A stretch of DNA of 64,000 nucleotides from an uncultured bacterium (GCA_938003875.1 CALKWO010000337.1:6105-70104), one strand, 5' to 3'; shown: positions 4,918-46,170, numbered from the stretch's first letter. Notes: a model not told the origin generated them from the letters alone. A program made the numbers and translations.

Positions 4918-5093
4918 TCTAACAGAATCTGTGGTATTTATAGTACATAAAAAAAATAAGGCTGAATGCCGCCTGCTGAAGCAGATGCTATTATCATAGC
5001 ACTGCTCATCTGGCACAGGAAAAATTTGCTAAGAGCAGGCTTTGTTATCTATAGGCTTTTATAAATAAGACTGTGACCACAGAAAACGTTAGA
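4918..5093 (+). mobile_element. ~176-bp MITE-/attC-like element, copy 1
   Basis: Highly similar to 13728-13902. Imperfect terminal inverted repeats TCTAAC-agaa-TCTGTGGT ... ACCACAGA-aaac-GTTAGA. Internal bulged hairpin 4971-5014. Flanking GCTCGAAAG direct repeat at 4904 and 5098. Confidence 0.75.
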
Positions 5094-5146
5094 ATAGGCT
5101 CGAAAGTAGTAAAACTATTTGAGAATTACAGAAATCAGGGAAAAGC

Positions 5147-8100
5147 ATGAGTCTAAAATCCTTTAGCATTTTTTTTCTTTTAATTGTATTTTTAGTCGCT
5201 TCAGGATATGGCTGGTATTCTTATAAGAAATACCAGGAAGAACAAGATGTTCTATTGTGGCATAATATATTAGAAAAAATTCAATTTCTATCGGAAAACT
5301 ATGCATCTCAGATTGCAGCATACCAGCTCTATTTAAAGCAATATCCTGAAGGAAAATATTCTGCTACAGCATACCTGGAAGTCACTCGTGCCATGGCACT
5401 CCAAAAAGCCGAGCTGCTTTGGGCTGAAGCTCAGAAAAAGACAGTTCAGTCTTTACAAGACTATTCTGATGCTATACAGGCTTATCAAAAATACCTGGAA
5501 TGGGCACCTAAAGGGAAATACGCTCTCAAAGCAAAAGAAAAAATCCTTGAATTGGGTTATCATAAGGAAGAAGAGAGTTTCTGGCTTTTATGCTTTTCTA
5601 AAGCAGAAATGGAAAAAACTTATGAACCTAAGATAGCGGCATATCAGGGATATCTACAAAAATATCCCTCTGGCAAGTATAAAGAAAAAGCTACGGCGAC
5701 TATCCTGTCTCTGGAATCATCTCTCGAAGAAGAAAAATACTATCGCCAGATTTTACAGGAAGCCAGGTCTTATTATGATAAGGGAGACTATGAGGAAGCT
5801 TATGATTCTTGCTTAAAATATAGTAAGAAATATCCTCAGGGTAACTATTCTTCTCTTATTGCCTTGGAAATCAAAGAAATTCAGAGAAAGAAAGAAACAC
5901 TTTTCTTTGAAGAAAAAGCAAAATCCTCTGTAACATATCTGGAAAGGGCAAACTTTGAAAGAGCGCATAGGGAAATTATAAGCTATCTTTCTGAATACCC
6001 TGAACCCCTTTATAACAAAGAAGCACGCAAGCTGCTTCAGGAAATTTCGCAGGCGGAAGAAGAAGCTCTGTATCAAAAGGCAACAAGATTCGTGGGAAAT
6101 CTCCCTCAGCGTATACAAAGTTTGGAAGAATTTTTAGCAAAATATCCTGAAGGGAAATACTCTCAGCAAATACAAAAATTGCTAAAAGAATATAAAAAAG
6201 AATATATCGCAAGAAAAATTTTGAGGACCCCGCCTGAAGGTTTAAAAAAAGAGGAGAGTCTAAAAGGTGCAAGCCAGAAACTTTTGGATCTCTTAGAGCT
6301 TGTCCAGGATTCCTGGAAATCTAAAGACCAGGAGAGATCCCGTAAACAACTCCAAACTGCATACCTGCTTGTGGATAAAGGAAGCCCTATCATAGAGACA
6401 CTGGATACATTGCAGGAATATTTATATTTTAAAGAAATAGAAATTCTTTTACAAAAGGGTGATTCTTCTGCGGAGAATCTTTGTAAAGATGCTGTTTCTC
6501 GTTTTCCTGATTCTCAAAAATTTAAAAATTTTCTGCAAAAGGCAATACAGGAGAATATTTCTCCTAAATTGAGAGAGAGTTATTCTATTGCACTGCAACT
6601 ACAAGAGAAAAAACAATATGAAGAAGCTATAGCTCTTTATAATACTATTTTTCCGCAAATGAATGACCATTATAAAAAGCTTGTAGAACTCAATAGACAG
6701 GAATGTAAAGATTTGTTTTCGGAAAGAGAATATAAAAAAGCTTATGAATGGCAAGAAAAAGGGGATTATGAGAAAGCTTTAGAATCTTATATAAAGATAA
6801 AGAGCCAGATGAGCGAAAAATATGCGAAAATTTTAGAAAAAAATACGAAAGAATGCCAGGATAAGCTATTTGAAACCTACTATGCTCTTGCTAGAAAAGC
6901 ATATCAGGAAAAAGATATTGCACAATGTTTACAGGCGATTCTCAAAGCAGAAAAATTAGGTAAAAACGATATTTATCTTAGTAATCTTAAACTACAAATC
7001 ACAGATAAAGTTTATACAGAATACCATCATAAAATTGTAAAAGCATTGGAAGAGCAAAGAATCGCGCTTGCCAGAGATATGCTTTCTGAAGTCTATGAAA
7101 AATATAATATAGGGGAAGAATGGGATAAAAAGTTTTCCGATTTTAAGGCATTTTTGGATGCCCACGATAAAGCGCATGAAGAATTCCGTAAAGGAAATAA
7201 TAAAGAATGTATTAATTTTTCTAAAATAGCATTGAAATATTATGAAAACGCGCAAATTAGAAAAATTTTGCTTCAAGTGGAAATGGAAAATGAAAAATAC
7301 TATACCTATCTTTCCCAGGCGGAGGAGTATCTTTCTGAGGGGAAAATCGAGAAGACCCAGGAAGTGATTCAAAAGCTCAAATCTATGAGGGGCGATATTC
7401 CTGACATCAGAAAGATGGAAAACCTATGGTTTATGCAGATGGCGAAAAGAGACAAAGGAGATTTTATAGAGAAGCTTCTTTATAAAATTCCTGTTAAAGG
7501 AGGCGAATGGGTATTGGATATGGCAAGCTCTGAGTGGAGAAACCTTTCTTATCAAAGACAGTCAGAGCTTGCTGCACTATACCAGAAAGTCTATGCCCAA
7601 CAAAAAGATCTGTCTGTAGAAAAGATGTTCCGTAGTCCCCAGATATCCTTTGAGCTTGTATTGATTCCACCAGGACGCTATCTGAGAGGCTCCCCAGCAG
7701 GAGAAAAAGATCGCTATCTGGACGAACAATATCACCTGGTAACGATTAGTAAGGCGTTTTGGATGTCAAAATACGAGATTACACAAGACCAGTGGTTTCA
7801 AGTCACACAGGAGCGTCCCTGGCAGGGAAAACAAGATAAAGCTTCAACATCTAAAATTACAAAAGGGAATACAAGCAAGCATCCAGCAAGTTATGTGAGC
7901 TGGAAAGACATTGAAAGCAAATTTTTTTCCAGGCTTGAAGAAAAATTTGCTTTGCCAACCGAGGCCCAATGGGAATATTCCTGCAGAGCTGGAACCACGA
8001 CGAGATTTTACTGGGGCGATGACATTGCCCACCAGAAAATAGAGGACTATGCCTGGTATTCAGAAAATACAGAAAAAAAAGGAAATCCTTTTCCTCAAGA

Positions 8101-9238
8101 CGTTGGGCAAAAAATTCCTAATGCATGGCATTTATATGATATGAGCGGCAATCTTTATGAATGGTGCCAGGACTGGAGAGGAGAATATCCTGCGACAGAG
8201 CAATTCGATCCTTCTGGGCCGTTGCAAGGAGAAGAAAGAGTCTATCGTGGAGGCATGTGGTTTCATAATGCACGATTTTGCCGTTCTGCTTTTCGCGCCA
8301 GCTATCTTCCAGACTACAGGGGATACTACACAGGCTTTCGTCTTGTTCAGGAAATCAATGATGAAAAGATTGTGATCGCCAGTTTAAACTGGACAGGTTC
8401 TACCGCTATCGAGCAAATCATGAAATACGTTTTGGAAAAAGAGTTGCGCATTCCTACAGAAATCAAGAATGTTCCTGAAAGAAATATATGGCCAGAACTC
8501 CAGGAAGGGACTGTAGACATTTTCCCTGATCTATGGCTGCCCAATAGAATCGCTTTGTTTCGAGAATATGTTGAAGAGAGGAAGACCGTAATTGCCAAAG
8601 TGAGCTATCCTGATGCTTATCAAGGTTTTTACATTCCTTCCAAAGTAGCCAAAAAATATGATATAAAGAATGTTTTTGATTTAAAGGGCAAAGAAAATCT
8701 CTTTGACGTAAATGGAGATGGAAAAGGCGATATATGGGTAGGCGATGGAAATTGGGATTCTACGGCCATCAATATATCCAAAATCCGTGAATATGGTATA
8801 GATTTGGAAATCTTCCAATCGGATGAAAAAAGATTCTATCCTGTTCTCAAAGAGAATATGCAGGCGGAAAAACCTATCTTGTTTTATTTTTGGGAGCCTG
8901 GATGGGTAACCTATACCTATGATGTAACATTGTTGGAAGAGCCGCCGTACCAGGAAGACAAATGGATATTTTCCAAAGGAAGACCTGAGCTTACAAAAAT
9001 TTCTTGCTCTTATCCCAAGGCGACCATTTATGTAGGAATTTCTAAAAAGTTGCAAAAAAGAATCCCGAAAGCCTATAAATTTTTCATGAACTGGTATATT
9101 CCTATCAATGAAGTAAGCTACCTGATTGCAGAAATTGAAGATATTCCAGACAATCCAGCTAAAGACCCTGCTGAAGTAGCAAAAGAATGGGTAAGAAAGC
9201 ACCCTGATATTATTAAAAACTGGCTTAGAGACCTTTAA
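5147..9238 (+). CDS. Membrane-anchored multidomain protein: TPR-like repeats + FGE-sulfatase (SUMF1) domain + C-terminal glycine-betaine-type substrate-binding (OpuAC/ProX-like) domain
   Basis: N-terminal TM; repeated YLxxYPxGKY helices; LPTEAQWEYSCRAG, DMSGNLYEWCQD, RGG...GFRLV; then LNWTGS, VDIFPDLWLPN, FYFWEP, WVRKHPDIIKNWL. Confidence 0.8.
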   Translation: MSLKSFSIFFLLIVFLVASGYGWYSYKKYQEEQDVLLWHNILEKIQFLSENYASQIAAYQLYLKQYPEGKYSATAYLEVTRAMALQKAELLWAEAQKKTVQSLQDYSDAIQAYQKYLEWAPKGKYALKAKEKILELGYHKEEESFWLLCFSKAEMEKTYEPKIAAYQGYLQKYPSGKYKEKATATILSLESSLEEEKYYRQILQEARSYYDKGDYEEAYDSCLKYSKKYPQGNYSSLIALEIKEIQRKKETLFFEEKAKSSVTYLERANFERAHREIISYLSEYPEPLYNKEARKLLQEISQAEEEALYQKATRFVGNLPQRIQSLEEFLAKYPEGKYSQQIQKLLKEYKKEYIARKILRTPPEGLKKEESLKGASQKLLDLLELVQDSWKSKDQERSRKQLQTAYLLVDKGSPIIETLDTLQEYLYFKEIEILLQKGDSSAENLCKDAVSRFPDSQKFKNFLQKAIQENISPKLRESYSIALQLQEKKQYEEAIALYNTIFPQMNDHYKKLVELNRQECKDLFSEREYKKAYEWQEKGDYEKALESYIKIKSQMSEKYAKILEKNTKECQDKLFETYYALARKAYQEKDIAQCLQAILKAEKLGKNDIYLSNLKLQITDKVYTEYHHKIVKALEEQRIALARDMLSEVYEKYNIGEEWDKKFSDFKAFLDAHDKAHEEFRKGNNKECINFSKIALKYYENAQIRKILLQVEMENEKYYTYLSQAEEYLSEGKIEKTQEVIQKLKSMRGDIPDIRKMENLWFMQMAKRDKGDFIEKLLYKIPVKGGEWVLDMASSEWRNLSYQRQSELAALYQKVYAQQKDLSVEKMFRSPQISFELVLIPPGRYLRGSPAGEKDRYLDEQYHLVTISKAFWMSKYEITQDQWFQVTQERPWQGKQDKASTSKITKGNTSKHPASYVSWKDIESKFFSRLEEKFALPTEAQWEYSCRAGTTTRFYWGDDIAHQKIEDYAWYSENTEKKGNPFPQDVGQKIPNAWHLYDMSGNLYEWCQDWRGEYPATEQFDPSGPLQGEERVYRGGMWFHNARFCRSAFRASYLPDYRGYYTGFRLVQEINDEKIVIASLNWTGSTAIEQIMKYVLEKELRIPTEIKNVPERNIWPELQEGTVDIFPDLWLPNRIALFREYVEERKTVIAKVSYPDAYQGFYIPSKVAKKYDIKNVFDLKGKENLFDVNGDGKGDIWVGDGNWDSTAINISKIREYGIDLEIFQSDEKRFYPVLKENMQAEKPILFYFWEPGWVTYTYDVTLLEEPPYQEDKWIFSKGRPELTKISCSYPKATIYVGISKKLQKRIPKAYKFFMNWYIPINEVSYLIAEIEDIPDNPAKDPAEVAKEWVRKHPDIIKNWLRDL

Positions 9239-9249
9239 AGGAAGCGTTC

Positions 9250-9810
9250 ATGCCAACCAATATACTACAAGACATTGGCGAAAGCCTGAAAAAATTTCTT
9301 CTGCTAAATTTAAAAGACATTTTGGAAGAAGAGGATATTCTATTCCGATCCCCTGGAGAGCTGGAATTGCCTGATAAACCTAAACTCGTCATTTTTTTGT
9401 CGTCTTTTGAAGAGAATAATTATCTCAGGAATACAGAGCCAGAAAGGCAGAATAACCAAAAATACTATCCTCCTCTGGTGTTAGATTTGCACTATCATTT
9501 CATCCCCTATGCAAAAGATAGAGAAAAAGAATGGACAATCATGGAAAAGGTTCTACAAACATTCCATGATACCAAAATATTTCAAGGAGAAATGTTAGCC
9601 CAAGAATTGTCTAAAAGCGGTAATGACACCATTAAAATCACATCATTCAAGATGGATGCAAAAGATTTAGACAGAATACAGAGCCTGTTTCTGGATAAAA
9701 GGTATCGGTTAATGGCTTCCTATACCTTTAGTCCCATCAAGATTCCTTCTTTGCGTACTCAGGAATTTAAAGAAATCAAGAAAAGAGAACTTGGCGTCGA
9801 GAAAAAATAA
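9250..9810 (+). CDS. DUF4255/Pvc16-N-like protein (contractile injection system tail terminator-like)
   Basis: FRSP...LVIFL..FEENNYLRN...PPLVLDLHYHF...VLQTFHD pattern of DUF4255. Confidence 0.7.
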   Translation: MPTNILQDIGESLKKFLLLNLKDILEEEDILFRSPGELELPDKPKLVIFLSSFEENNYLRNTEPERQNNQKYYPPLVLDLHYHFIPYAKDREKEWTIMEKVLQTFHDTKIFQGEMLAQELSKSGNDTIKITSFKMDAKDLDRIQSLFLDKRYRLMASYTFSPIKIPSLRTQEFKEIKKRELGVEKK

Positions 9811-9826
9811 CAAATCGAGGTTTTTT

Positions 9827-10816
9827 ATGATTGAATCCATAAAATTTACGAATTTTAAAGCACTTAGAGACACAGTACTTCCCTTAAAACCATTCACGCT
9901 GATTGTAGGAGCGAATGCCACAGGCAAAACCACTGCCCTTCAAGGCTTGCAGTTAATACAAGGATCTTTGGAGAGCGAATTTAAAAAATTTTTGAGCTTT
10001 ACTGCTTCGAATGAATCAGAAATGCACTTAAAAGTGCTTAGTCGAGGCAAACAGTTGCTTCTGGAAACGGAAATTATATGGACGAGGGGAAATCGGATTG
10101 TCAGGCATGATAAGCCCATCGATCCGCCAGCTTTAGGCAATGAGAATGCTTTAACACCAACATTTTCCTCTCTCCAGCAAGAACAAGACCAGTTGATTCG
10201 GAATTTGAACGGTTTTCAGAATTATAATTTAAACGGTTCTGCCATTAGTCGCCCTGTTCTCTTGAAATCATATTTAAAGCTTCTGAATGATGGTAGCAAT
10301 CTTGTTGGAATTTGGGACAATCTGCGCGATGGAGAGCCTGAAAAATTTGAGGCTCTCAATCAGGAGCTAAATCGCTGGCTGCCTGAATTTGATCGCATTC
10401 TTTTTGAAACACCTTCTGATGGAAATCGTTCCTTTATGCTGAGAATAAAAAATGGGAAGCATAAAATCCCCGCTTCAGAGCTTTCCCAGGGGACATTGTT
10501 TACCCTTATTTTTGTTACCCTTGCTTATCTTCCCAATCCTCCCAGTATCTTAGGAATCGAAGAGCCTGACAGAGGAATCCATCCCAAGCTTTTGCCTGAA
10601 ATAAGAAATACGTTCTATCGTCTTAGTTATCCTGAAGCTTTTGGAGAAAATCGTTCCCCGATACAAATTATTGCCACAACACATTCTCCTAATTTTTTGC
10701 GACTTTTTCAGGAACGCGCAGAAGAGGTTGTGGTCGCCTGTAAGGAAAATTCTGAAGTGAAGTTCCTGAAAATGTCTGAAAACCCGAATCTCAAGGAAAT
10801 AGAAAAAGTGATATAG
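9827..10816 (+). CDS. AAA_21/ABC-type ATPase (SMC/RecF/AbiEii-like)
   Basis: IKFTNFKAL, Walker A GANATGKT, signature LSQG, Walker B ILGIEEPD, TTHS. Start at ATG 9827. Confidence 0.85.
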   Translation: MIESIKFTNFKALRDTVLPLKPFTLIVGANATGKTTALQGLQLIQGSLESEFKKFLSFTASNESEMHLKVLSRGKQLLLETEIIWTRGNRIVRHDKPIDPPALGNENALTPTFSSLQQEQDQLIRNLNGFQNYNLNGSAISRPVLLKSYLKLLNDGSNLVGIWDNLRDGEPEKFEALNQELNRWLPEFDRILFETPSDGNRSFMLRIKNGKHKIPASELSQGTLFTLIFVTLAYLPNPPSILGIEEPDRGIHPKLLPEIRNTFYRLSYPEAFGENRSPIQIIATTHSPNFLRLFQERAEEVVVACKENSEVKFLKMSENPNLKEIEKVI

Positions 10817-10918
10817 GTCTGTATAAATTTTTCAAACAGTAAAATTAAAGTAGAATTTTTTTGGGGATTTAGTTAGAATAACCTGATATATATTAAATTT
10901 CAAACTTTTGCCCCTATC

Positions 10919-10959
10919 GCAGGCTCAAGCAGATGCTATCATTGCACTGATTAGCCTGC
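10919..10959 (+). repeat. Bulged hairpin family B, solo copy
   Basis: GCAGGCT-c-AAGCAG-a-TGCTAT...TGCA-CTGATT-AGCCTGC. Confidence 0.8.
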
Positions 10960-11027
10960 ATAAGTTTATTTGCCATTTGAATATTGAGTTTGTCATTGCA
11001 CCAAAGTATACTTTGAAAGGTTGTTTC

Positions 11028-13688
11028 ATGGGCAATTTAGATTTTCAGCTTACTAAAGAAAAATTAACAGATGGATCTTCTGTAGCACTATTGCACATGA
11101 AAGGATCCATAGATGGGACTACAGTAAAAAAATTTGAATCTAAAACATTGGGGTTATATGAAGAAGGTATAAAGTATCTTATTCTCAATTTTTTTGAAGT
11201 AGGCTACATGAATAGCACTGGTCTAGGCATCCTGGTGAAAGTGTTAGATAAATTTCAAGAAAAAGATGGAGATGTCAAATTAGTTAAAGTCCCAAGAAAA
11301 GTAGCGGATCTTTTTGATATGCTTGGAATTTCTTCTATCGTTACTATTTATCCTGGTATGGAAGAAGCCATCCAATCTTTGCCTTTCCCTATTCAATCTG
11401 CTATGACATCCCATTCTGCTGAGGTTATAAAAAAGGAAACAATAGAACCTCCAGCTCCTCCAAGAGGCTTTGTTATAGAACAACCCAAAAGCGATGATCT
11501 TTTACAAGATACAGGAATTCTCATCGCTCCAGACGATGCAGGTGGAATCGCTATTTCTCCTGAGCCTGAGGTTTCCATAGATCAACCAGTTCCTATTGTT
11601 TCTATATCATCAGAAGAAAACCTCGAAGGTGGAATCGCTATTGATGCAGAATGGGAGACTGCTACTGAAGAAGAAAAAAAAGAGAGCATTTCTAGCTCTA
11701 CAGCAGCAGAATTTTTTGAAATTTCTCCTATCGAAGAGGAATATCCTAAAACAAATGAACAGGCTGTTTCTGATGGGATGGAATTAGGAATCGATTTGAG
11801 TAACATGGAAGAATTGTCGGATTCACCGTCTTTTGATATAGGACAAAAAACAGAAGAAGAAAAACGCGAGGATAATGCGGATTGGAGCATAGAGGCTGAA
11901 CCTATGGGCTTTGCTGATGAGCAGGCATCTACTATAAAAGAAGATCAGGCAGAAGAAATTCAAGAAAGCATTGCTACCTTTGAAGAAATACAAGATTCTA
12001 AGGATGCCCAGGAGGAAATCGCTGCTCCCGAATTTGAAGAGGTTGCTTTCGAAGAACCTGCCCAGGAGGAAATCGCTGCTCCCGAATTTGAAGAGGCTGC
12101 TTTCGAAGAACCTGCCCAGGAAGAAATCACTGTTCCTGAATCTCCAGAGGCTGCTTTTGAAGAGCCCGCCCAAGAGGAAATCGCTGCTGCTGAATCTCCA
12201 GAGGCTGCTTTTGAAGAGCCTGCCCAGCAGGAAATAGCTGCTCCTGAATCTCCAGAGGCTTCTTTTGAAGAGCCTGTCCAGGAGGAACTCTCTGCTCCTG
12301 AATCTCCAGAGGCTTCTTTTGAAGAGGTACAGGATTCTGATGATGAGCAAGAAAAACTTGCTGCACCCTCTTTTGAAGAGGTACAGGATTCTGATGAACT
12401 CTCTGCTCCTGATGGACTGGAAGAAATAGATTTACCCGAAACTTCTCAAAAAATGCAGGAAGCATCAGACATAAATTTATCTGCAGACGCCCCAAATGCA
12501 GGATTACCTGATCTCTCGCTCGATTTAGAAGAAGCTTTCCAGGAGGCATCTGGAGAAAAAATGGTTCCTGAAATGGGAAAACAGAAGATTGACAGCTTAC
12601 AGACCGAAATAGAATTTCCTTGTGACGCTTTAAAAAGCATACCCAATATGGCAGAAGACACAGATTTGCTGGAAACACAAGTCAGCTCTAATTACAAAAG
12701 CGTGGCCTCTTCTGATATTCCTGCTATAGCTACTTCTATAAAAGATACGTCAACCACATTGGAAAAGGCTGTGGCTGAGCTGGAAGAAGAAGTTCAGGAA
12801 GAAAGTCGATTAGAACGAAGAGTAGAGCAAGAAGCAGTCTCTGCGCCTGCTTTTGCATCCGCACCTGCCAGCCCTGCACCTATGCCTGTTTCTCCCATGA
12901 TGCCTTTTGATGAGGATAAAAAAGAAGATGTCCCTGATGATATTGTAAACGCATTCCGTGATTCAGAAGAACAACTTCTGGCCAATAGGTCTGCAAAAGA
13001 AGAGCAGAGCAAAAAGTCAGTGACCAAAATACCTACATCGGGAAGTATTCCTCCAGTCAAAGGAAAAGCTCCCTTCAAGAGGAAAACCACGGTTCGCTAT
13101 TATGAGCAGATGAATCCCTCTAAATCCTATCCGCTTTCTGTAACCTTATCGAAAGACAAGGTCGTAGCCACAAAGATGGCTCATGTTGCACAAAAAGAGG
13201 GCAAGAAAGATTTAGTCATATCTGCTGATAAGCCTAAGGTTACTATCACTCCTGTGCTTTCAGGCTGTCATGTCGCTCCTCAAAGCATTACTCTGGATGT
13301 AACCCAGGAAGTATCCCGTGCAGATTTTTGGGTAACTCCTATTATAGAAGGGTCAATGTATGGCTGGATCGAGATTACACACCAGGGCGAAACCATCGAA
13401 AAAATAGACATACAGACCAAAAGTGTCAAACAAACATGGGCTAAAATAGCAGCAGCAGCATCTGTTCTCAGCCCCTTCTTTTCTTCTTTTATGGAAGGAA
13501 TTCTGACACAAAAAGAATCTTTAAAAGGCCTTCCTCGCTTTCTCATGGATTTTAGTGATAAAATAGGTGGACTGACCATGTTAGGTATTGGCGGTTTTGT
13601 CTTATTCATGGTTGCTGGAATTGTCTTCTATCGACGAAGTCTTCCTAAAGAAGCACAAGAAATCGAAAAATTCTTTGGGGCAGAGTAA
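11028..13688 (+). CDS. STAS (anti-sigma-factor antagonist) domain protein with long acidic disordered linker and C-terminal membrane anchor
   Basis: N-terminal KGSIDG...YMNSTGLG...ADLFDMLG (STAS, phospho-Ser motif); Glu-rich middle; C-terminal TM. ORF-track start at 10908 runs through the repeat, so ATG 11028 is preferred. Confidence 0.8.
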   Translation: MGNLDFQLTKEKLTDGSSVALLHMKGSIDGTTVKKFESKTLGLYEEGIKYLILNFFEVGYMNSTGLGILVKVLDKFQEKDGDVKLVKVPRKVADLFDMLGISSIVTIYPGMEEAIQSLPFPIQSAMTSHSAEVIKKETIEPPAPPRGFVIEQPKSDDLLQDTGILIAPDDAGGIAISPEPEVSIDQPVPIVSISSEENLEGGIAIDAEWETATEEEKKESISSSTAAEFFEISPIEEEYPKTNEQAVSDGMELGIDLSNMEELSDSPSFDIGQKTEEEKREDNADWSIEAEPMGFADEQASTIKEDQAEEIQESIATFEEIQDSKDAQEEIAAPEFEEVAFEEPAQEEIAAPEFEEAAFEEPAQEEITVPESPEAAFEEPAQEEIAAAESPEAAFEEPAQQEIAAPESPEASFEEPVQEELSAPESPEASFEEVQDSDDEQEKLAAPSFEEVQDSDELSAPDGLEEIDLPETSQKMQEASDINLSADAPNAGLPDLSLDLEEAFQEASGEKMVPEMGKQKIDSLQTEIEFPCDALKSIPNMAEDTDLLETQVSSNYKSVASSDIPAIATSIKDTSTTLEKAVAELEEEVQEESRLERRVEQEAVSAPAFASAPASPAPMPVSPMMPFDEDKKEDVPDDIVNAFRDSEEQLLANRSAKEEQSKKSVTKIPTSGSIPPVKGKAPFKRKTTVRYYEQMNPSKSYPLSVTLSKDKVVATKMAHVAQKEGKKDLVISADKPKVTITPVLSGCHVAPQSITLDVTQEVSRADFWVTPIIEGSMYGWIEITHQGETIEKIDIQTKSVKQTWAKIAAAASVLSPFFSSFMEGILTQKESLKGLPRFLMDFSDKIGGLTMLGIGGFVLFMVAGIVFYRRSLPKEAQEIEKFFGAE
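12006..12330 (+). repeat. Intragenic 54-bp tandem repeat (~6 x AQEEIAAPESPEAAFEEP)
   Basis: Seen in both DNA and protein. Confidence 0.9.
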
Positions 13689-13727
13689 TTTTATTTGCCT
13701 GGAATAGAACAAGCGATTGCTTCTGGT

Positions 13728-13902
13728 TCTAACAGAATCTGTGGTATGTATCGTCTATAAAAGAATAAGGCTGAATACCGCCTGCTGGAGCAGATGCTAT
13801 TATCATAGCACTGCTCATCTGGCACAAGAAAAATTTGCTAAGAGCAGGCTTTGTTATCTATAGGCATTTTATCAATAAGACTATGACACAGAAAATGTTA
13901 AA
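13728..13902 (+). mobile_element. ~175-bp MITE-/attC-like element, copy 2
   Basis: Same sequence family as 4918-5093. Flanked by AACAAGCGATTGCTT (13708-13722) and AACAACCGATTGCTT (13902-13916). Confidence 0.75.
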
Positions 13903-13993
13903 ACAACCGATTGCTTTACAGTTGTTTGTTTTATTCCTTTTAAGCATCATTCGTTACAGGTTAGGAGGGGCGATTTCAAAATCGCTTAGCATT

Positions 13994-15973: not shown

Positions 15974-16056
15974 TAAGGAACAAGAATTAAATAACTTCCA
16001 CATTTCCTCCCGCAGACTCAAGCAGATGCTATTAACATAGCACTGCTTAGCCTGCA
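15974..16056 (+). repeat. 83-bp repeat (family B hairpin with TAAGGAACAAGAATTAAATAA leader)
   Basis: Near-identical reverse-complement copy at 46088-46170. Confidence 0.9.
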
Positions 16057-16123
16057 CAAGCTGCTTATGCTAAGGCCAAATTTTATAATGAGAAAAGTAG
16101 TTAATATATTTTAAGAAAGTCCA

Positions 16124-17434: not shown

Positions 17435-17474
17435 AGTATTTCCTTTATTTTTACTGTTTCAGGAAAGGAATAGT

Positions 17475-18635: not shown

Positions 18636-18641
18636 CATTCC

Positions 18642-18668
18642 AATAGCCAGGGTAGCCCCCTGGCTATT
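18642..18668 (+). terminator. 11-bp stem hairpin after the ATP-grasp gene (terminator or stabiliser)
   Basis: AATAGCCAGGG-tagcc-CCCTGGCTATT; weak U-tract. Confidence 0.55.
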
Positions 18669-20282: not shown

Positions 20283-20288
20283 TACAAT

Positions 20289-33516: not shown

Positions 33517-33535
33517 GGTAAAACCTTGAGATTCA

Positions 33536-33559
33536 CGTGACGGATTGCAATCCGTCACG
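33536..33559. repeat. Perfect 24-bp palindrome CGTGACGGATTGCAATCCGTCACG
   Basis: The sequence is its own reverse complement; it lies ~20 bp upstream of the pepC start. Confidence 0.9.
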
Positions 33560-33608
33560 ATTTTGAATTATTCGATATATATTGCTTGATAAAAAAAATG
33601 CAATCTTG

Positions 33609-34565: not shown

Positions 34566-34590
34566 AAATTTCTCCTCATTGAAAAATAGT

Positions 34591-35574: not shown

Positions 35575-35609
35575 TCATAAATCCTTTCGTAATGAATCTC
35601 AAAAAATGC

Positions 35610-37760: not shown

Positions 37761-37769
37761 AAATTTTCC

Positions 37770-37982
37770 TTAACTCTTATCGCTATCAATTTTATCGAAA
37801 AGTTCAAACAGGCTTAAAATACCAAACCAACCAGAAGAGATCAGAACAACCCCAGAACTCCACCAGAGGTACTCATTTTTGATAAAAAATCCCGATGCCA
37901 TCAATATCAATCCAACGAATAGAAAAATAGAAAATTTGTGCCAGCGTCTAAGCCTACCTCTACCTGCTGTATTTGTTTCCAT
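37770..37982 (-). CDS. Small 2-TM membrane protein
   Basis: AAGGAG RBS, two hydrophobic helices, in line with neighbouring genes. Confidence 0.6.
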   Translation of the reverse strand: METNTAGRGRLRRWHKFSIFLFVGLILMASGFFIKNEYLWWSSGVVLISSGWFGILSLFELFDKIDSDKS

Positions 37983-38003
37983 GACATATTCTCCTTTGAT
38001 TAG

Positions 38004-38285
38004 CTATTTTTTTTTGGATGCACTTTTATAAGTAGTTTTTTTTAAGGGTTTATAGAGATCGTTTGTCTGATCGGAGCGAGCAATAACGACACCTGGGTTT
38101 GACGGTTTTTTTGCAACTTTGGGTTTACCTTTAAATCCTGGATGGACAGGCCCTTCCAATGGTTTTGGTGTTCTGCCAAAAGCAACGGGTTTGCAAACAG
38201 GCTTTCCATCAGGAAAAGCATTGCCACCAACGCATCTAGGTTTCCCCAATCCGCTAGAATTTCTCTCAGGTTTAGGATTTGGCAT
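38004..38285 (-). CDS. Small basic Pro/Gly/Lys-rich protein
   Basis: AAGGAG RBS, ATG, 93 aa, co-oriented with neighbours. Confidence 0.6.
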   Translation of the reverse strand: MPNPKPERNSSGLGKPRCVGGNAFPDGKPVCKPVAFGRTPKPLEGPVHPGFKGKPKVAKKPSNPGVVIARSDQTNDLYKPLKKTTYKSASKKK

Positions 38286-38322
38286 GTTTTCTCCTTATCT
38301 GTAATAGTCAAAGTGATCCTGT

Positions 38323-38365
38323 GCAAAATGAGCAGTGCTATAAAATAGTATCTGCTCTATTTCGC
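38323..38365 (-). repeat. Bulged hairpin family B, divergent copy
   Basis: Minus strand GCGAAAT-a-GAGCAG-a-TACTAT-ttt-ATAGCA-CTGCTC-ATTTTGC. Confidence 0.75.
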
Positions 38366-38407
38366 ATCTGCGACAGCACTTTGGTCAGACAGTTTTTCTC
38401 CTTATAC

Positions 38408-39013
38408 CTATAAAGTATCTGCTTTAAGCCCTAATTCTTTGGTTAAAAGGGCTAACGATTTTTGAAGTTCTTCAAGACTGGCATCATTGGTGAGATAATA
38501 GTCACAAAGAGCTATAGGGCCTCCTTTTTCTAAAGCTTCTATTTCTGCAAAGTCTCTTTTTTCTGCTTCTTCTGGCGTTAAAGGGCGATACTCTCTTATA
38601 GAAAGTCGATGATATCTTGTCGCTCTTCTGGAGATGACGCAAATCAAAAGAATCTTAGCCTGAATGGATTGCCTTAGCAGAGTATATTCACTCCAGCTAT
38701 AAAGACCATCAATAAGCATTGTGTCCTGCTTTTCCAGAATTTCCCGAATGATTGGAATAGAAAGATGGGCATAGGCAGCCATTCCATACTGTGCCCTCAA
38801 TTCCATGCGGACTTTCTTTTCGTTGTCCTGAGTTTCAGGCAAATTTCTTTTACGCACTTCTTGTATTGTTATGTTGCCGAAATGCAAAAAAGGTAAGCGA
38901 TAGTCCTGGACAAGGGTTTGTACTACAGTGGATTTTCCTGTTCCAGGCATACCCACTATGGCAAGAATTGTTTTTTCTTTTTTAGAAGTGTTTTCCATCA
39001 AAATTTCTCCCAC
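38408..39013 (-). CDS. P-loop kinase, dephospho-CoA kinase/UPF0200-like
   Basis: GMPGTGKS, IDGLYSWSE, RDFAEIE..EKGGPIA. Confidence 0.75.
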   Translation of the reverse strand: MGEILMENTSKKEKTILAIVGMPGTGKSTVVQTLVQDYRLPFLHFGNITIQEVRKRNLPETQDNEKKVRMELRAQYGMAAYAHLSIPIIREILEKQDTMLIDGLYSWSEYTLLRQSIQAKILLICVISRRATRYHRLSIREYRPLTPEEAEKRDFAEIEALEKGGPIALCDYYLTNDASLEELQKSLALLTKELGLKADTL

Positions 39014-39063
39014 TATTACAGAAAACGTTCTGTTGCTATTCCTGCAACAGAACTGGACAATGC

Positions 39064-39639
39064 TTATTTTTTCTCTTTACTATAATTTTCATTCATTCTG
39101 TCTAAGATAGTATTGGTGATATCGTAGTCTTTTCCCCAATATAGCACATCGCGTGTATGGATTTGCATTCTCAAGGCTTCTGCTGTCTGAGAGCCAAAGA
39201 AGTCAGGCTCTGCTACACGCAATACCATAAAAAAATTATTTTTTTTGGCATATTCTTCGATTTCTTCGCTTACTTCTCGGTATATATCCTCCAAACCAAT
39301 CTTGAGCTTTTGGGTAAAGAAATGGTTGGCTTTTTCTTCCGAATATTTAATTTCAAAAAGCTTTTCTGTAAGCCTTTTTTCTTTGTTCTGGCGAATCTTG
39401 CTTCCTGCTTTGTACAAAGGAATTTCATCTTTAAGCTGCTTTACTTCTTCTTTTAATCCTTTTATTTTAGATAGTTCTGCTTCTGTTTCCTGCCTTATGG
39501 TTTCTTCCATGACAGTTACTTTTTTATAATCGCGAAAAACTTTCTTTAGATCAATGAAACCTATTTTCAGGTTTTGTGCGCAGACAAGAGGGCAAAAAGA
39601 AGCACAGAATAAAAGGACACAAACAATAAAAGATCTCAT
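39064..39639 (-). CDS. skp: OmpH/Skp family periplasmic chaperone
   Basis: Signal peptide, KIGFIDLKKVF, coiled coil, YDIT..IL; AAGGAG RBS. Confidence 0.8.
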   Translation of the reverse strand: MRSFIVCVLLFCASFCPLVCAQNLKIGFIDLKKVFRDYKKVTVMEETIRQETEAELSKIKGLKEEVKQLKDEIPLYKAGSKIRQNKEKRLTEKLFEIKYSEEKANHFFTQKLKIGLEDIYREVSEEIEEYAKKNNFFMVLRVAEPDFFGSQTAEALRMQIHTRDVLYWGKDYDITNTILDRMNENYSKEKK

Positions 39640-39689
39640 ACTTACTCCTTGAAGTTTTTGAAAAATTATTTTAAAAATATTCAATATTT

Positions 39690-41672
39690 CTAGTTAAAAA
39701 CAGGATGAATGGTGTTTTTTTCGGGTAAAGAGGGAATCCATTCTTTTAGAAGATTACGGAATTCTTCTCCTTCCAGAGTTTCTTTTTCCAAAATAATATC
39801 TACAATTTTTTCCAAAGCGTATTTGTTTTGGGAAATCATTTCTTTGGTCTGAGCATAGCATTGTGTTACCAATTTGATTACTTCTTTGTCAATTTGATCC
39901 ATTGTGTTGCCGCCAAAGTATGTTTTTCTCTCGAAATTTCGCCCCAGGAAGACATACCCTTCTTCTCGCTCAAAAGAGATAGGCCCCATTTCTTTTGTCA
40001 TACCATATCTTGCAACAATAGAACGGGCTATATCTGTAACGTGTTCAAAATCATTTTGAGCACCTGTAGAAACGATGTTTAGCCCAATCTCTTCAGAGAC
40101 TCGTCCTGCAAGAAGAATGCAAATTTTTGCCAGCAGCTCTTCTTTTGTGCGTGTGTATTTATCTTCTTCAGGTAAAGAAAGAGTATAGCCTAAAGCGGAG
40201 CCTCTAGGAATGATGCTTACTTTGTGTACAGGATCACCATCAGGGTGAAGCTCTGCAACCATGCCATGTCCTACTTCATGATAGGCCGTAATCTTTTTTT
40301 CCTTGGAAGAAATGATTCTGCTTTTGCGCTGTGGGCCTGCAATCACTCTCTCTATCGCTTCAGAAATATCTTTCTGATCGATCATCGTTTTGCCCTTGCG
40401 AGCTGCCAAAAGAGCAGCTTCGTTCATGATATTGGCCAGATCTGCTCCAGAAAAACCAGGAGTCCTCTGGGCGATTTGTTTTAGTTCGATACCAGCAGCA
40501 AGAGGTTTTCCTTTAGCATGGATTTTCAGGATTTCTTCTCTTCCTTTGATGTCAGGTTGGTCGATTACGACTCTACGATCAAAACGGCCTGGCCTGAGCA
40601 ATGCAGGATCAAGGATATCAGGACGGTTGGTGGCAGCAAGAACAATAATGCCTTTGTTGTTTTCGAACCCATCCATTTCTGCAAGGAGCTGGTTGAGCGT
40701 TTGTTCTCTCTCATCATGTCCCCCGCCGACTCCTGCTCCTCTATGCCTTCCGACAGCATCGATTTCATCAATGAAAACAATACAAGGTGGTTTGGCTTTT
40801 GCCTGCTGGAAAAGATCCCTCACCCTCGATGCACCTACTCCAACAAACATTTCCACAAATTCTGAACCAGAAATATTGAAAAAAGGAACGCCAGCTTCCC
40901 CTGCGACGGCTCTTGCCAGTAAGGTTTTTCCTGTACCTGGAGGGCCTACCAATAGAGCACCCTTAGGAATTTTACCACCCAACTGCTCAAATTTGGAAGG
41001 AGATTTCAAAAATTCTACGATTTCCTTAAGCTCTTCCTTAGCTTCATCGCAGCCTGCCACATCTTCGAAAGTGGTTTTTGTGTCTTCTTCCGCAGTAATT
41101 TTGGCTCTGGTTTTGACAAACGACATGACATCTTTTCCATAGCTATTCATTCGTTTCATGATAAAAACCCAAAGAACCATAATCAAGCCAATAGGAATAA
41201 TCCAGGAAAAAAGCAGTGCTACCCAATTGTTGTCCATTTCGCCTTGATAGGGGATATTGTGTTTTTCCATAAGCTTGATAAGATCAGGGTCATCGAAAAC
41301 TCTGGTCACAACAAACTGAACCCTTCCTTTTTTAGGTTGTAAAAAATCTGCAAAAAGGCTATCTTCTTTCTTTTTGTTTTCCTTAGAAGATTCTGGTTTA
41401 GGAGGATTTTTTTTGATTTCTTCTAACGTTTCTTTCCATATTGTTTCATCTTCGATATAAATACCTTTGATATGAGTATTGCTGAGTATGCACTTTTCAA
41501 TACGGTGTTCATCAGCAATCAATTTTTTAAATTTGGAATAGCTCAATTCTTCTGTTTTATTTCTAAAAAAAATAGAATGGAGCATAAGAATCAGAAAGAA
41601 AAAAATAAAAAAATAGTAGATAGGGAATTTGTTTCTATTCTCTCCTAGAGGAGATTTATTTTCTGAGGACAT
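39690..41672 (-). CDS. ftsH: ATP-dependent zinc metalloprotease FtsH
   Basis: Two [50 protein letters not shown]. Confidence 0.97.
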
Positions 41673-41784
41673 ACTTAAATTTTCCTTTGGTTCCAGCAAC
41701 GAAATTAAAACGAAAACTTTCGTTTGATTATAGAGAGAGTTTTTGTTCTTTGCAACTTAATTTTTATATATCTGACCTGTCAGA

Positions 41785-42393
41785 TTATTTCATAAAAAAA
41801 ATCAAATCGCTTTTGCTGCGTATTTTTTTTAGTAACTCTTCTTTTAGATTCATCTTGGCTCTATTCAAAAGACTTTTTACCGCCTGCACACTGGTCTTCA
41901 TGATTTGCGCTATTTCTTCATAAGAAAGATTTTCATATTTGGATAGAATTACTGCCATTCGTTGGTTAGCAGGAAGTTTGTTCAAGGCATTTTTTACTTC
42001 ACTGCATATCTCTTTCCTTGACAAAATGCGGGAAGGAGTTTCTTGAGAGCTATCGCTTATCATAAGAGCAGGCGAGCTACTGTCTTGATTTTGGATAGAA
42101 TATGCTTTTTTCCGTTTTTGATCCCTGATATAGTTTAAACAGAGATTTGTAACGATTCGATAAAGCCATGTATGAAATGAAGCTTCTGGGGTATATCTTT
42201 CGCGGGCGTTATAAATTCGTAGAAAAACCTCCTGTGCAAGGTCTTCAGCATCTTGAGGATTGTGGACAAATCTCTGGATGGTATTTAGTACACGAGAAAA
42301 ATTTTGCTCCATGATTTGCGTAAAGGCACTATCATCTCCCTGAGAAAATTGTACCATCCATTGTGTATCTGTTCTGGGAGTCTGTGTTACCAT
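41785..42393 (-). CDS. ECF-type RNA polymerase sigma factor
   Basis: DAEDLAQEVFL, F.TWLYRI..N, LP..QR...LSYEEIA...VKSLLNRA. Confidence 0.92.
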   Translation of the reverse strand: MVTQTPRTDTQWMVQFSQGDDSAFTQIMEQNFSRVLNTIQRFVHNPQDAEDLAQEVFLRIYNARERYTPEASFHTWLYRIVTNLCLNYIRDQKRKKAYSIQNQDSSSPALMISDSSQETPSRILSRKEICSEVKNALNKLPANQRMAVILSKYENLSYEEIAQIMKTSVQAVKSLLNRAKMNLKEELLKKIRSKSDLIFFMK

Positions 42394-42477
42394 ATCTTAT
42401 AATCTTCCGATATGCTGTATGTTTGGGAAAATGAGAAAATTTTTCATTTTCCCAATTTTTTTTGTGCCAACCGTTAT

Positions 42478-43587
42478 TTATTTCATTCCTTCCTGGAAGA
42501 CTTTCTTCAAAAGATCCAGTCCTCTGTCGATCTCCTCTTCTTTCGTGGCAAAAGAGATACGGAAATGAGTATCTTTTTCACTAAAAGCATTGCCTGGAAT
42601 TACCAGAATTTCTTTTGCAACGGCCGCTTCGCAAAATTTTTGTCCAGTTCCCCACGGAACTTCTGGAAAAATATAAAAAGCACCATGAGGCTTCGATACT
42701 TGAAAACCAATATCCAATAACCCTTGATAGATTTTATCTCTTTTCCGTTTGTATCTTTCTATATAGGGTGCAAGATCTACATCAAAAGTTTTAATACAGG
42801 CATATTGTGCAGGAGTAGGGGCACAAACAAAAGTAAATTGTTGTAATGTAGTCATCTTTTCTATAATTGCTTGAGGCCCAGCAGCATAACCCATTCTCCA
42901 TCCTGGCATTCCATAGGTTTTAGAAAAACCATTCAAAAGCAGAGTGTTAGGATAATACGAAACTATGGAATGGTGCTGATCTTCATAGTTAAAAGCTTCA
43001 TAGATCTCATCGGAGATGATTAAGAGATTATTTTTTTTTGCAATTTGTGCAATCTGAAGCAATGTTTCTTTTGAAAAGACTGTACCTGTAGGATTAGAAG
43101 GACTATTGATAAGAATAATTTTGGTCTTTTCCGTAATTTTTTCCTCGATTTTTTTTACATCTATTTGAAAATCAGGATAAAGACTATAGTATTTTGGAAC
43201 ACCGCCAGCAAGAGACAACAAGTGCTTGTACATCACAAAATATGGGTCGGGAATCAGAACTTCATCACCAGGATTGACAAGAACCATCATGGCTAGCAAT
43301 AAAGCCCCAGAAGTTCCACTCGTTATCATCAAGCCTTCTGGCACAAAATTTCTGGTTTTTTGCAGCTCTTCCTTTACTTTTTCCCTGAGAATCGAAATCC
43401 CTTGTGTCATGGTATATTGATTCAAACCTTGTTGGATAGCCTTGATCGCAGCCTCTTTCACTGGTTCAGGAACATCAAAGTCGGGTTGTCCAATAGAAAA
43501 GTTGACTGGGTTTTGCATTTTTGCAGCCAAATCAAAAACCTTACGAATCCCTGAGGCTGTAATATTTTTTACTCTATCTGCAAACAT
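42478..43587 (-). CDS. PLP-dependent aminotransferase class I/II (aspartate aminotransferase-like)
   Basis: GQPDF, NSPSNPTG, SDEIY, SKTYGMPGWRMG. Confidence 0.93.
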   Translation of the reverse strand: MFADRVKNITASGIRKVFDLAAKMQNPVNFSIGQPDFDVPEPVKEAAIKAIQQGLNQYTMTQGISILREKVKEELQKTRNFVPEGLMITSGTSGALLLAMMVLVNPGDEVLIPDPYFVMYKHLLSLAGGVPKYYSLYPDFQIDVKKIEEKITEKTKIILINSPSNPTGTVFSKETLLQIAQIAKKNNLLIISDEIYEAFNYEDQHHSIVSYYPNTLLLNGFSKTYGMPGWRMGYAAGPQAIIEKMTTLQQFTFVCAPTPAQYACIKTFDVDLAPYIERYKRKRDKIYQGLLDIGFQVSKPHGAFYIFPEVPWGTGQKFCEAAVAKEILVIPGNAFSEKDTHFRISFATKEEEIDRGLDLLKKVFQEGMK

Positions 43588-43630
43588 GGTATTGCCTTTC
43601 TAAAAGTAAAGTAACAGAGTTTATCCACCT

Positions 43631-43661
43631 AAAAAAAAAACCTGGGTTACAAAAACCCAGG
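43631..43661 (-). terminator. Rho-independent terminator after the PVC signature protein gene
   Basis: Minus strand CCTGGGTT-tttgt-AACCCAGG followed by T10. Confidence 0.8.
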
Positions 43662-43674
43662 AAGGAATAAAAGA

Positions 43675-43884
43675 CTATTTTTCTGCGGCTTCTTCTTTTT
43701 TTTCTTTTACTTTAGCAACTTTTTTCATTTTAGTGCCAGAAAGAACTTTGGGTAGTCCATACACAGAACTTTCTTCTTTCCAAATTCCTTTTTTACTTAA
43801 TATTTCAATTCGTTCTCCTCTTTTTAAGACATTACGATGTCTTTTCAGCTTAGAGGAGATAAATAAACTTTTATGAATAGACAT
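43675..43884 (-). CDS. PVC superphylum signature small basic protein (TIGR04137-like)
   Basis: MSIHKSL...RHRNVLKR.ERI..L...G.W....SVYGLPKV; AAGGAG RBS, ATG 43884. Confidence 0.88.
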   Translation of the reverse strand: MSIHKSLFISSKLKRHRNVLKRGERIEILSKKGIWKEESSVYGLPKVLSGTKMKKVAKVKEKKEEAAEK

Positions 43885-43979
43885 AAAAACTCCTTTGTCT
43901 CGATAAAAATGCAGCAAAACATATAGCTATTACAATATTTTCTTTTTTTTTCTTCTTAAAAACTTCCGAAGAATAATTC

Positions 43980-44098
43980 CCCTCATAGAAAGTTGGTTTC
44001 CCTGAACTGGATACAGGATTGACATAGATCCCCAAACTGGAAGATTGTTTGTAGGGTACTGTGTCCTGATCACCTCCCTAATCAACTAGCAAGTAGGG
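43980..44098. ncRNA. Candidate structured RNA (rod-like, ~119 nt) upstream of the PVC signature gene
   Basis: Nested complementary blocks CCCT/AGGG, AGTTGGTT/AATCAACT, GACATAG/CTGTGTC, CAAAC/GTTTG. GC-richer island in AT-rich DNA, downstream of a consensus promoter. Confidence 0.45.
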
Positions 44099-44138
44099 TA
44101 TAGCTATTTACTTTATTTTTTTCAAAATATAAAACAAA

Positions 44139-44167
44139 ATCTTACTTGGATGAGGGCACGAAGTCAA
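44139..44167 (-). promoter_or_regulatory. Putative sigma70 promoter
   Basis: Minus strand TTGACT-17 bp-TAAGAT. Confidence 0.65.
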
Positions 44168-44465
44168 GTTTTTTTTTGCATCTTATCACGAATTTTGTTG
44201 TAAATCATTTTTGGCTATATTCCTCTTTTCTTTCTAGAATTTTTGTGAAGATTTTGTAAAATGGACTTAAGGCATAATAAAAATAACACAGCGAGCTGCT
44301 TTAATGGAGAATTTTATTCTATTAAAAATTGCAAGAAAAAATCTTGAAGTTTAAGCCAATTTTCTGCTTGTAATCTTTGGGATTTTTTTGTATTTTTAAG
44401 ATATATCTACTTACTGGCATTGCTTCAAAATCAATAGAAACTAATAAATTCAGAAGGGGGAAATC

Positions 44466-44930
44466 ATGAAAAATATAATCATTGTTATTATTGGCGTGCT
44501 TATAAGTCTTGTATATTCCAAATGGGATAATATAAGGTCGCTGCTCGTGACTCCAAAGACAACACAAAAGACTACAACAATAGAGGCTCCAAACCAAAAT
44601 GTCGAGACGGAATTACTTTATTATAAAAGGTTGGACCAGACTATCAGCTTTGAAGTAGACTCTTCCCTTACATTAGAGAAAACTATAGCTCAGATATGCC
44701 AGAAAGCCTATATCCCTTATGTTTTTGTTGAAAAAGCAGATCTTAAAACTACTGCACCTAAGCTGGATTCTTATAAACTACATGGCAAGGTCAAAGATAT
44801 TATAGAAAAGCTCATTTCTCAGCAAGAGCTTTTGTATGTCCTTAACGAGAATGGTCTATGCCTTAGAAAAAAAGAAAATTATACTCATGGCGAAAGCACT
44901 GTAAAAATAACACCTTGTCGTACTGGCTGA
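44466..44930 (+). CDS. Hypothetical membrane-anchored protein (STN/secretin-N-like region)
   Basis: N-terminal hydrophobic anchor; ISF...TLEKTIAQICQKAYIPYVF pattern. Confidence 0.6.
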   Translation: MKNIIIVIIGVLISLVYSKWDNIRSLLVTPKTTQKTTTIEAPNQNVETELLYYKRLDQTISFEVDSSLTLEKTIAQICQKAYIPYVFVEKADLKTTAPKLDSYKLHGKVKDIIEKLISQQELLYVLNENGLCLRKKENYTHGESTVKITPCRTG

Positions 44931-45004
44931 AAAGGCTAGAAATAAACTCATCCGTTGGATGAGTCCACTGTGGATCAATATGAGCCTTTTTCTTAGACGA
45001 AATT

Positions 45005-45032
45005 AAAAAACCAGGGCTCAGCCCTGGTTTTT
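45005..45032. terminator. Bidirectional intrinsic terminator
   Basis: AAAAAA-CCAGGGC-tca-GCCCTGG-TTTTT between convergent genes. Confidence 0.85.
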
Positions 45033-45057
45033 ATTTTGTAGAAGTTCAAAATATCTT

Positions 45058-45951
45058 TTACTTTGTCCCTTTGATTTCTGCCCATTCTTCCCATTTTTCT
45101 GGATTGGGACCAAAGTCTTTTCCTGTGAGTTCTTTTAATACAGAGTATGCTGCATCCCCTACATTCCCTACGGGGTCACGCATTTTTTGGACAAGAGGAA
45201 TCTTGCACTCTTCTGTATATCCTATCATGGCAACCGCTCCAATGGAATTGTAGCGAACAGCAGGATGTTCATCGTTCCATGTATTAGCAAGAATAGCTTT
45301 TACAGCTTCGGGATTTCCTGTTCTGGCAAGTGCTATGACAACATTGTTTCTTACTTCTGGTGCAGGGTCTTTCAAGGCTACCAGAAGATGAGGCAAAGCA
45401 TCCTGGTCTTTTTCCTTGTTTACTATCTGCGAAATAGCAAAAGCAGACATAGCCCTTACAGAAGCTTCTGGGTCTTTCTTTAGGGCATCGAATAGAATTT
45501 CCATAGGAGTCTGGTCTGAGGCAATGTGTCCTAAGGATAGTGCTGCATTGCTGCGTACAATAGAACCTCCTGTTTTCAAGGCATCGTTCAGATAAGGAAT
45601 GGCTCGTATGTCATTGCTGAACCCCAGGGAAGTAACAGCAATATATCCCTTTTCTCCAGGAATGGCTTTCACAAGTTCGGAAAAATGGCTTCTGCTCAAT
45701 TCTTCCAGATCTTTTTCTGCAGAAATGACCAGAGCATGATCCTGTATTTTCTGAGCAGCCTGCCATTTTTTCAGCAATGTATCAAGCTGTGCCAAAATAT
45801 CTTCGTCTTGTTTTGTTGTCCGATAGTCCAGTCCTTGACGATCTTCCTTGATTTCCTGCAAATCTATTTTTTCATCTTTTGCTTTATCAGCACAACCAGC
45901 CAGCAAAAGCAAGGAAGCAAGGAATACAAAAAAAAATTTTCGCATCAACAT
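45058..45951 (-). CDS. HEAT-repeat lipoprotein
   Basis: Lipobox LAGC; repeated D....VR..A..AL units. Confidence 0.85.
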   Translation of the reverse strand: MLMRKFFFVFLASLLLLAGCADKAKDEKIDLQEIKEDRQGLDYRTTKQDEDILAQLDTLLKKWQAAQKIQDHALVISAEKDLEELSRSHFSELVKAIPGEKGYIAVTSLGFSNDIRAIPYLNDALKTGGSIVRSNAALSLGHIASDQTPMEILFDALKKDPEASVRAMSAFAISQIVNKEKDQDALPHLLVALKDPAPEVRNNVVIALARTGNPEAVKAILANTWNDEHPAVRYNSIGAVAMIGYTEECKIPLVQKMRDPVGNVGDAAYSVLKELTGKDFGPNPEKWEEWAEIKGTK

Positions 45952-46087
45952 TTTCCTTTAAAATTTGTAATTATCAAACTACAGCAGCTCTCATTATGTA
46001 TTTGCTATGAGAATGAAATAACTTCCCCATTTTAGTTCATAAGGTTCAACGTCTATAACACAATCAGAATACACGAAGAAAAGCCTA

Positions 46088-46170
46088 TGCAGGCTAAGCA
46101 GTGCTATATTAATAGCATCTGCTTGAGTCTGCGGGAGGAAATGTGGAACTTATTTAATTCTTGTTCCTTA
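46088..46170 (-). repeat. 83-bp family B repeat, copy 2
   Basis: Reverse complement of 15974-16056 with two substitutions; begins at the TAA stop of the upstream gene. Confidence 0.9.

Follow-up and report, generated by a model that had tools for sequence, protein, structure and literature searches.

A double-bulge, attC-like hairpin carried by miniature transposons with unrelated ends in an uncultured bacterium

Results

The hairpin forms the center of miniature transposons

Six double-bulge hairpins in a 64,000-nucleotide stretch of DNA from an uncultured bacterium (GCA_938003875.1 CALKWO010000337.1:6105-70104; the whole stretch is called the window, and positions are counted from its first letter) belong to a dispersed family of which most copies form the center of miniature inverted-repeat transposable elements (MITEs), a mode of carriage that a preliminary description of the window had not considered. 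On balance, we take the hairpin to be a MITE-borne passenger, likely derived from the attC site of integrons without its crossover box and likely kept as a predicted protein-bound DNA hairpin of the bottom strand. The genome of the studied bacterium (G000) is an assembly of 416 contigs with 82% completeness; it was compared with a genome of the same genus (G001) and one of the same family (G002), and all comparisons of variation, alleles, and sequencing runs rest on assembled contigs. Digester, sludge, and wastewater samples are the source of the runs that contain the window.

The carrier elements were grouped by their ends into the T8 family, with 8-bp target duplications, the T15 family, with TGT...ACA ends and 15-bp duplications, and a third end type, AZ, which we take to be ISAzo13-like. 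The hairpin is contained in 37 of the 39 two-ended T8 elements (~185 bp), and an 8-bp duplication was identified for 27 of the 39 as compared to 4 with swapped flanks. Among the T15 elements, which are 92 and 144 bp long, 50 of 57 contain the hairpin; their duplication measures 15 bp in 36 of 57 (1 with swapped flanks) and 16 bp in only 2 of 57. AZ ends contain the hairpin in 13 of 36 rows, some of which were counted from both ends, and no target duplication length could be established for them. A fourth end type holds the hairpin in 2 of 22 cases and shows an exact 4-bp duplication in 13 of 22, with none in the swapped-flank control. Among 244 copies, matching ends flank the hairpin on both sides in 102, ends are absent in 44, and ends of two families are combined in 2.

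When we examined the orthologous gaps in relatives, 10 of 11 two-sided syntenic sites were empty, from which it follows that the hairpin moves with the MITEs; one old copy is shared with G001, and no empty alleles were found among four runs of the same species. The movement is very probably the work of DDE transposases acting on the MITE ends. On contig C215 a T8 element is nested within a T15 element, which shows how the cargo could change ends, and passage between end types probably proceeds by such nested insertion followed by internal deletion.

Distribution, covariation, and orientation of the family

A genome-wide scan, as the preliminary description had proposed, placed the motif far above chance: a profile built from G000 (cut-off E<=0.01, non-overlapping matches) identified 266 copies in that genome and 0 in the reversed genome. 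Using a two-arm pattern, the core was found in 3 of the 401 genomes of the phylum, namely G000, G001 (60 pattern matches; 81 matches to the model), and G002 (174 left-arm matches), where the terminal part is variable and usually long. In the collection scan 23 of 29 rows belong to one genome, and metagenome contigs yielded one further hairpin variant; matches outside the family in these two scans lacked the outer arms and were discarded as chance. The viral contigs that were searched contained no core, no MITE ends, and no transposase.

Compensatory pairing in the outer stem, first noted among the six copies, extends to the family. Of the 192 cells from 48 cluster representatives, 133 are Watson-Crick, as compared to a shuffled mean of 74, and a second covariation test counted 41 two-sided stem changes where 14.4 were expected. 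Pairing thus persists while the outer stem differs between subfamilies. Because the copies share kinship, these covariation figures are not probabilities.

The claim that all copies are co-oriented with transcription fails genome-wide. Among 250 copies placed relative to genes by a simple gene caller, those in gaps between co-directional genes are sense in 84 cases and antisense in 49, with the remainder in divergent gaps (45), in convergent gaps (10), in open reading frames (ORFs; 7), or at contig edges (55). The two largest families split 21:14 and 18:18, near random orientation, and the rule is a property of the window only. AZ-type elements, such as the one at position 15974 of the window, tend to start directly after a stop codon, with a median of 37 nt from gene end to core, and this habit may be the source of the AZ orientation bias.

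The stem varies less than the rest of the element

For the comparison of stem and surroundings, MITEs were selected by their ends alone. In T8 elements the stem varies at 8/1400 (0.6%), as compared to 292/4938 (5.9%) in the rest of the element and 5.1% in the inverted repeats; the corresponding values are 23/1400 (1.6%) and 216/3455 (6.3%) for the long T15 elements, and 8/1240 and 363/2453 for AZ, where the value for the rest is inflated by truncated copies. The stem therefore varies 4-10 times less than the remaining element, and a hairpin far less variable than the transposon ends surrounding it is likely kept for a function. In the contigs of the four runs, variants likewise lie mostly in the flanks, an outcome that the listing threshold favors. 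We are fairly confident that the low variation of the stem reflects selection rather than assembly smoothing.

It may be argued instead that the hairpin is neutral cargo, an old repeat caught by chance by several MITE founders and then amplified, so that the covariation would reflect founder differences together with palindrome self-correction and the low variation would be an effect of assembly. Repeat carriage is common in G000, where many further MITE end types hold other short repeats, of several classes, as cargo; T8 and AZ ends, too, occur with other cargo, and a few hairpin copies have become perfect palindromes by losing a bulge. The genes next to the copies are ordinary and unrelated, and transposase or integrase genes are not enriched among 388 such neighbors. 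However, palindrome self-correction would lead to loss of bulges and to compensatory pairs, neither of which is seen in T8: its stems hold 0.05 private changes per site (2 in 40 sites) as compared to 0.50 elsewhere (71 in 142), GC and AT sites alike, and no compensatory pairs. Bulges and non-paired positions are retained in nearly all copies, and both bulges persist at one site shared with G001 and in another genus despite a different loop and outer stem. We consider neutral carriage unlikely. G000 also contains a family of ~245 copies that resembles repetitive extragenic palindromic (REP) sequences, as well as two repeats (116 and 43 copies) of a CRISPR-like kind.

Comparison with integron attC sites

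The likeness to attC suggested for the six hairpins proved well founded in bulge geometry, distal T, and strand skew. By the attC rules in the sections of PMC5027507 used here, the hairpin resembles attC in that one arm carries two single bulges with 6 bp between them. In 47 of 48 cluster representatives the distal one, read on the bottom strand, is a T, and of 113 distinct cores 94 fold better as the bottom strand. Unpaired bases are purine-rich on the bottom strand, 31 of 45 top-strand mismatches oppose two pyrimidines, the loops on the bottom strand are of the GAA type, and the terminal part is variable in G002. Bottom-strand loops run from G to A in 184 of 217 copies, and the 172 four-base loops of this kind comprise 155 GNYA and 17 GNRA; GNA and GNNA loops are described as unusually stable in DNA in the relevant parts of PMC13037366 and PMC3201870. 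In addition, a canonical attC behind a small ORF in a planctomycete genome (G156) has an inner stem and both bulged bases identical to the G002 version of the hairpin, and shares 10 of 11 L-box bases with the T8 copies, the commonest; two misplaced rows of alignment A3 were left out of account.

In contrast, several features set the hairpin apart from attC. The preliminary description had reported the AAC/GTT R boxes as missing; GTT is indeed absent in 177 of 177 hairpins, but AAC stands at the canonical distance in 58 of them. No paired R box is present, since at most one of three R-box positions pairs in 173 of 177 hairpins. Where attC has a spacer of 5-6 unpaired nt per arm, the hairpin has a mostly paired 7-bp outer stem, and its copies do not lie behind cassette genes, in arrays, or near intI but are dispersed by the hundreds inside MITEs. 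The hairpin is not a working attC. Taking likenesses and differences together, we lean towards its derivation from an attC site. G000 does contain a genuine cassette cluster (G000:C156:83500-84900, minus strand), with 3-4 canonical attC sites, short ORFs, and an adjoining resolvase-like gene on an integrase-rich contig; the hairpin was not found in this cluster.

Old copies lie behind promoter-like sites

Among 42 old copies, which lie outside the large families, a -10-like hexamer begins 40-46 nt upstream in 23. Restricted to 40-45 nt, the count is 21 of 42; the mirror side gives 1 of 42, and other distance windows give 3-12. Nine of the 23 copies have a good -35 match (background, 9%), and 12 of them lie in divergent gaps; the old cores would accordingly sit near +30 of a transcription start predicted from sequence. 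The same -10 spacing is shared by 8 of 23 non-MITE copies from relatives. Transposon ends or duplications around old copies show no excess (10/54, as compared to 11/54 in the control). A similar peak ahead of AZ copies was set aside, as the element's own first bases can supply it. The proposal of a conserved cis-acting motif that marks gene boundaries does not stand, orthologous sites being mostly empty, yet a cis role survives for old copies at a fixed distance behind promoter-like sites.

A bolder scenario is an attC module that has lost its crossover box and is independent of the transposase, its bottom-strand hairpin being bound by IntI or another host protein and settling ~30 nt behind promoters; such a domesticated integron module would act across the genome and would time and again take on the ends of unrelated transposons, since it would help those transposons to spread or make them less costly. 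As a whole, this scenario seems to us improbable. Slightly less probable still is a top-strand RNA leader (a stabilizer or an antitermination element) that arose at promoters and later became MITE-borne, softening insertions. Besides the fixed spacing from -10 boxes, a leader would account for the sense orientation of old copies to the downstream gene (21 of 27; expected, 52%) and for the scarcity of copies in convergent gaps (10 of 188, although such gaps make up 14.5% of all gaps). On the other hand, the large young families, whose orientation is close to random, are equally conserved, and the skews in loop sequence and folding energy favor the opposite strand. Neither the window nor eight loci matched Rfam 15 at the gathering level, and the downstream genes form no evident regulon. 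Bottom-strand DNA is, in our estimate, somewhat the better candidate for the working form of the hairpin than top-strand RNA.

IntI, RAYT, and other candidate partners

The search for intI and RAYT genes suggested in the preliminary description identified intI and nine Y1-type matches in G000. The intI gene is cut by a contig end, and among the nine genomes of the order IntI occurs in the same three as the hairpin. Its 3' part and the next gene (G000:C164:1-730; G001:C572) are 98.5% identical between G000 and G001 against a background of ~76%, likely reflecting recent transfer or mis-binning; the G001 gene carries an early stop. In G002, the tip of the hairpin recurs as an exact 16-base match within a short ORF ~460 bp past the end of intI, on the same contig (L176:529-544), and many short direct repeats lie upstream of this intI (L173:2080-2900); at the first gene that follows, no attC was seen. 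Three near-identical RAYT-like genes of 247 aa (G000:C112, C344, C241) with duplicated upstream segments have no flanking hairpin copy.

As the preliminary description had partly envisaged, IntI or an HUH enzyme (RAYT/IS200-like) might act on the hairpin as a live, non-canonical site of recombination or nicking, the HUH enzyme moving or rewriting it. Such a view could draw on the attC-like bulges, on the presence of these enzymes, on direct tandem arrays of the hairpin in G000 and G002, and on a remark in PMC5027507, as far as its relevant section goes, that the AAC triplet is in itself unimportant. It is very unlikely, however, given the lack of a paired R box, the intact target duplications and rare mixed ends of the carriers, the distance of the nearest copy from intI (6 kb) and from any Y1 gene (1.7 kb), the absence of the hairpin beside the RAYT-like genes, and the early stop in the G001 intI.

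Transposases behind the MITEs

A 428-aa ORF, spread over two contig ends (G000:C49:87-1370), lies between T8-type ends with an 8-bp duplication. The protein has no Pfam or NCBIfam match above cut-off and only a weak IS256 score. Its structural model (predicted local distance difference test score of 88) has the ISCth4 transposase as best match, with an E of 6e-8; by the ends and duplication around it, it is the parent transposase of the T8 family, and on this modeled fold it is putatively IS256-like (IS256/Mutator-like). Its 1251 homologs are annotated only as hypothetical and are also found on cyanobacterial plasmids with similar ends. Derivation of the hairpin from the coding sequence of this transposase was rejected: the likeness is at chance level relative to shuffles and other genes, and the hairpin is not in the gene.

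In the portion of bioRxiv 10.1101/2022.12.17.520857 consulted, the ISTde1 subgroup of IS1202 is defined by TGT ends together with repeats of 15-17 bp, and T15 fits this subgroup by its ends and duplication length; a profile of the IS1202 type gave no match above cut-off in nine genomes. A partial ISAzo13 gene was rejected as the AZ parent because it lacks matching ends, and DDE_Tnp_1 and rve loci were rejected as sources as they have neither matching ends nor cores.

Copies of the hairpin in the window

All six hairpins of the preliminary description were confirmed at their coordinates and fold as it described, the two single bulges lying on the chosen strand's 5' arm; three of them, folded on both strands, gave z values of -3.5 to -5.8 relative to shuffles. 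Five of the six lie inside larger repeats with terminal inverted repeats, which had been overlooked; by type, two are T8, one is T15, two are AZ, and one has no ends.

The first T8 MITE (~185 bp) occupies 4913..5097 on the plus strand, with the hairpin core at 4971..5014 (plus strand), and has a 9-base direct repeat on both flanks. In public runs, contig ends accumulate at its edges, at 4909-4916 and 5098. The second T8 MITE, at 13723..13907 (plus strand; core at 13780..13823, plus strand), is likewise flanked on both sides by a 9-base direct repeat. An AZ MITE at 15974..16060 (plus strand), which starts directly after a stop codon, is represented by its left end and the hairpin (16012-16055); its right end was not found. 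On the minus strand are a short T15 MITE of 92 bp (38300..38391; hairpin at 38323-38365), of whose duplication 12 bases are still exact, and a two-ended AZ-type MITE (46002..46170; hairpin at 46089-46132).

The sixth hairpin (10919..10959, plus strand) is an old, degenerate copy with a shortened tip, one mismatch, and no recognizable transposon ends; it likely lies in the leader of the next gene. A -10-like hexamer at 10874..10879 (plus strand) lies 43 nt ahead of it, with no good -35 match there. The placement in sense orientation between co-directional genes holds for the other five hairpins but not for this one, which overlaps the 5' end of a long ORF with a TTG start.

Discussion

The passenger reading set out above implies the following course of events. 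An attC site would have lost its crossover box and been reduced to a 44-base core, which mini-transposons of unrelated end types would have caught, nesting and internal deletion swapping the ends. DDE transposases would then move the non-autonomous elements together with the hairpin. The bottom strand would fold and be bound by a protein, and the fold would be held under selection; at old copies, ~30 nt behind predicted starts, transcription would open the DNA and so allow the hairpin to fold.

A number of observations weigh against parts of this account. With regard to selection on the stem, the contrast is weaker for short T15 elements (12% as compared to 19%), the conservation comparison in G001 is spoiled by mixed elements and uninformative, stem changes are not clearly different by orientation, and assembly may have smoothed the highly repeated core, only contigs having been compared. 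With regard to attC ancestry, the link is one site among 30 loci, the only one with a right arm, and a 10-base match obtained with a partly assumed search motif; family model R1 scores neither this attC nor those of G000, and the latter differ in sequence from the hairpin. The loop counts are dominated by three founders, with G..A in only 14 of 26 distinct loops, and pyrimidine mismatches on the top strand would suit RNA too. No partner protein was found. IntI is also present in 22 of 81 genomes of the phylum, and the near-identity of the G000 and G001 genes means that its co-occurrence with the hairpin says little. The -10 peak is missing from the G002 copies (2 of 26), and because some of the other cases are insertions of the 4-bp family, which uses AT-rich 4-bp targets, just behind the -10 box, targeting may explain part of the peak elsewhere. 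Finally, in the 82% complete assembly the search for a parent transposase with matching ends was unsuccessful for T15 and AZ, as it was for the 4-bp end type.

In most respects the carriers are typical of bacterial MITEs of the IS256/Mutator-like and IS1202 (ISTde1) kinds: they are short, non-coding, and intergenic, with inverted repeats and family-specific duplications, their sites are empty in relatives, and the 8-bp family has its parent transposase in the genome. They differ in that one central module, more strongly conserved than the ends, is common to unrelated end types, where MITE cores of different species are described in PMC3184786, in the part bearing on this point, as showing no similarity. 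With REP/REPIN sequences and their RAYT proteins the family has in common hundreds of intergenic imperfect hairpins, tandem clusters, restriction to a lineage, and nesting with insertion sequence-type elements; it differs in that the hairpin does not flank the RAYT-like genes and in its DDE-type target duplications. Neisseria REP2/Correia elements, according to the same part of PMC3184786, are dispersed repeats tied to promoters and 5' leaders; here, however, the conserved part does not include the promoter-like site, and the young families show no orientation with genes. No published description of this arrangement was found in a literature search that covered few subscription journals. MITEs and REP-like repeats are known kinds; what appears to be new is one attC-like core common to unrelated transposon ends and better conserved than those ends.

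What lies between the ends of a MITE is usually regarded as inert filler. A core common to unrelated ends, and better conserved than the ends that the transposase needs, points to selection on the core itself. The T8 parent, in turn, represents a widespread IS256-like transposase, by its modeled fold, that has no Pfam or NCBIfam name. If the attC origin is true, the family would document how part of an integron can turn into a genome-wide repeat, and would offer a small, testable substrate for asking what role IntI genes play without cassette arrays.

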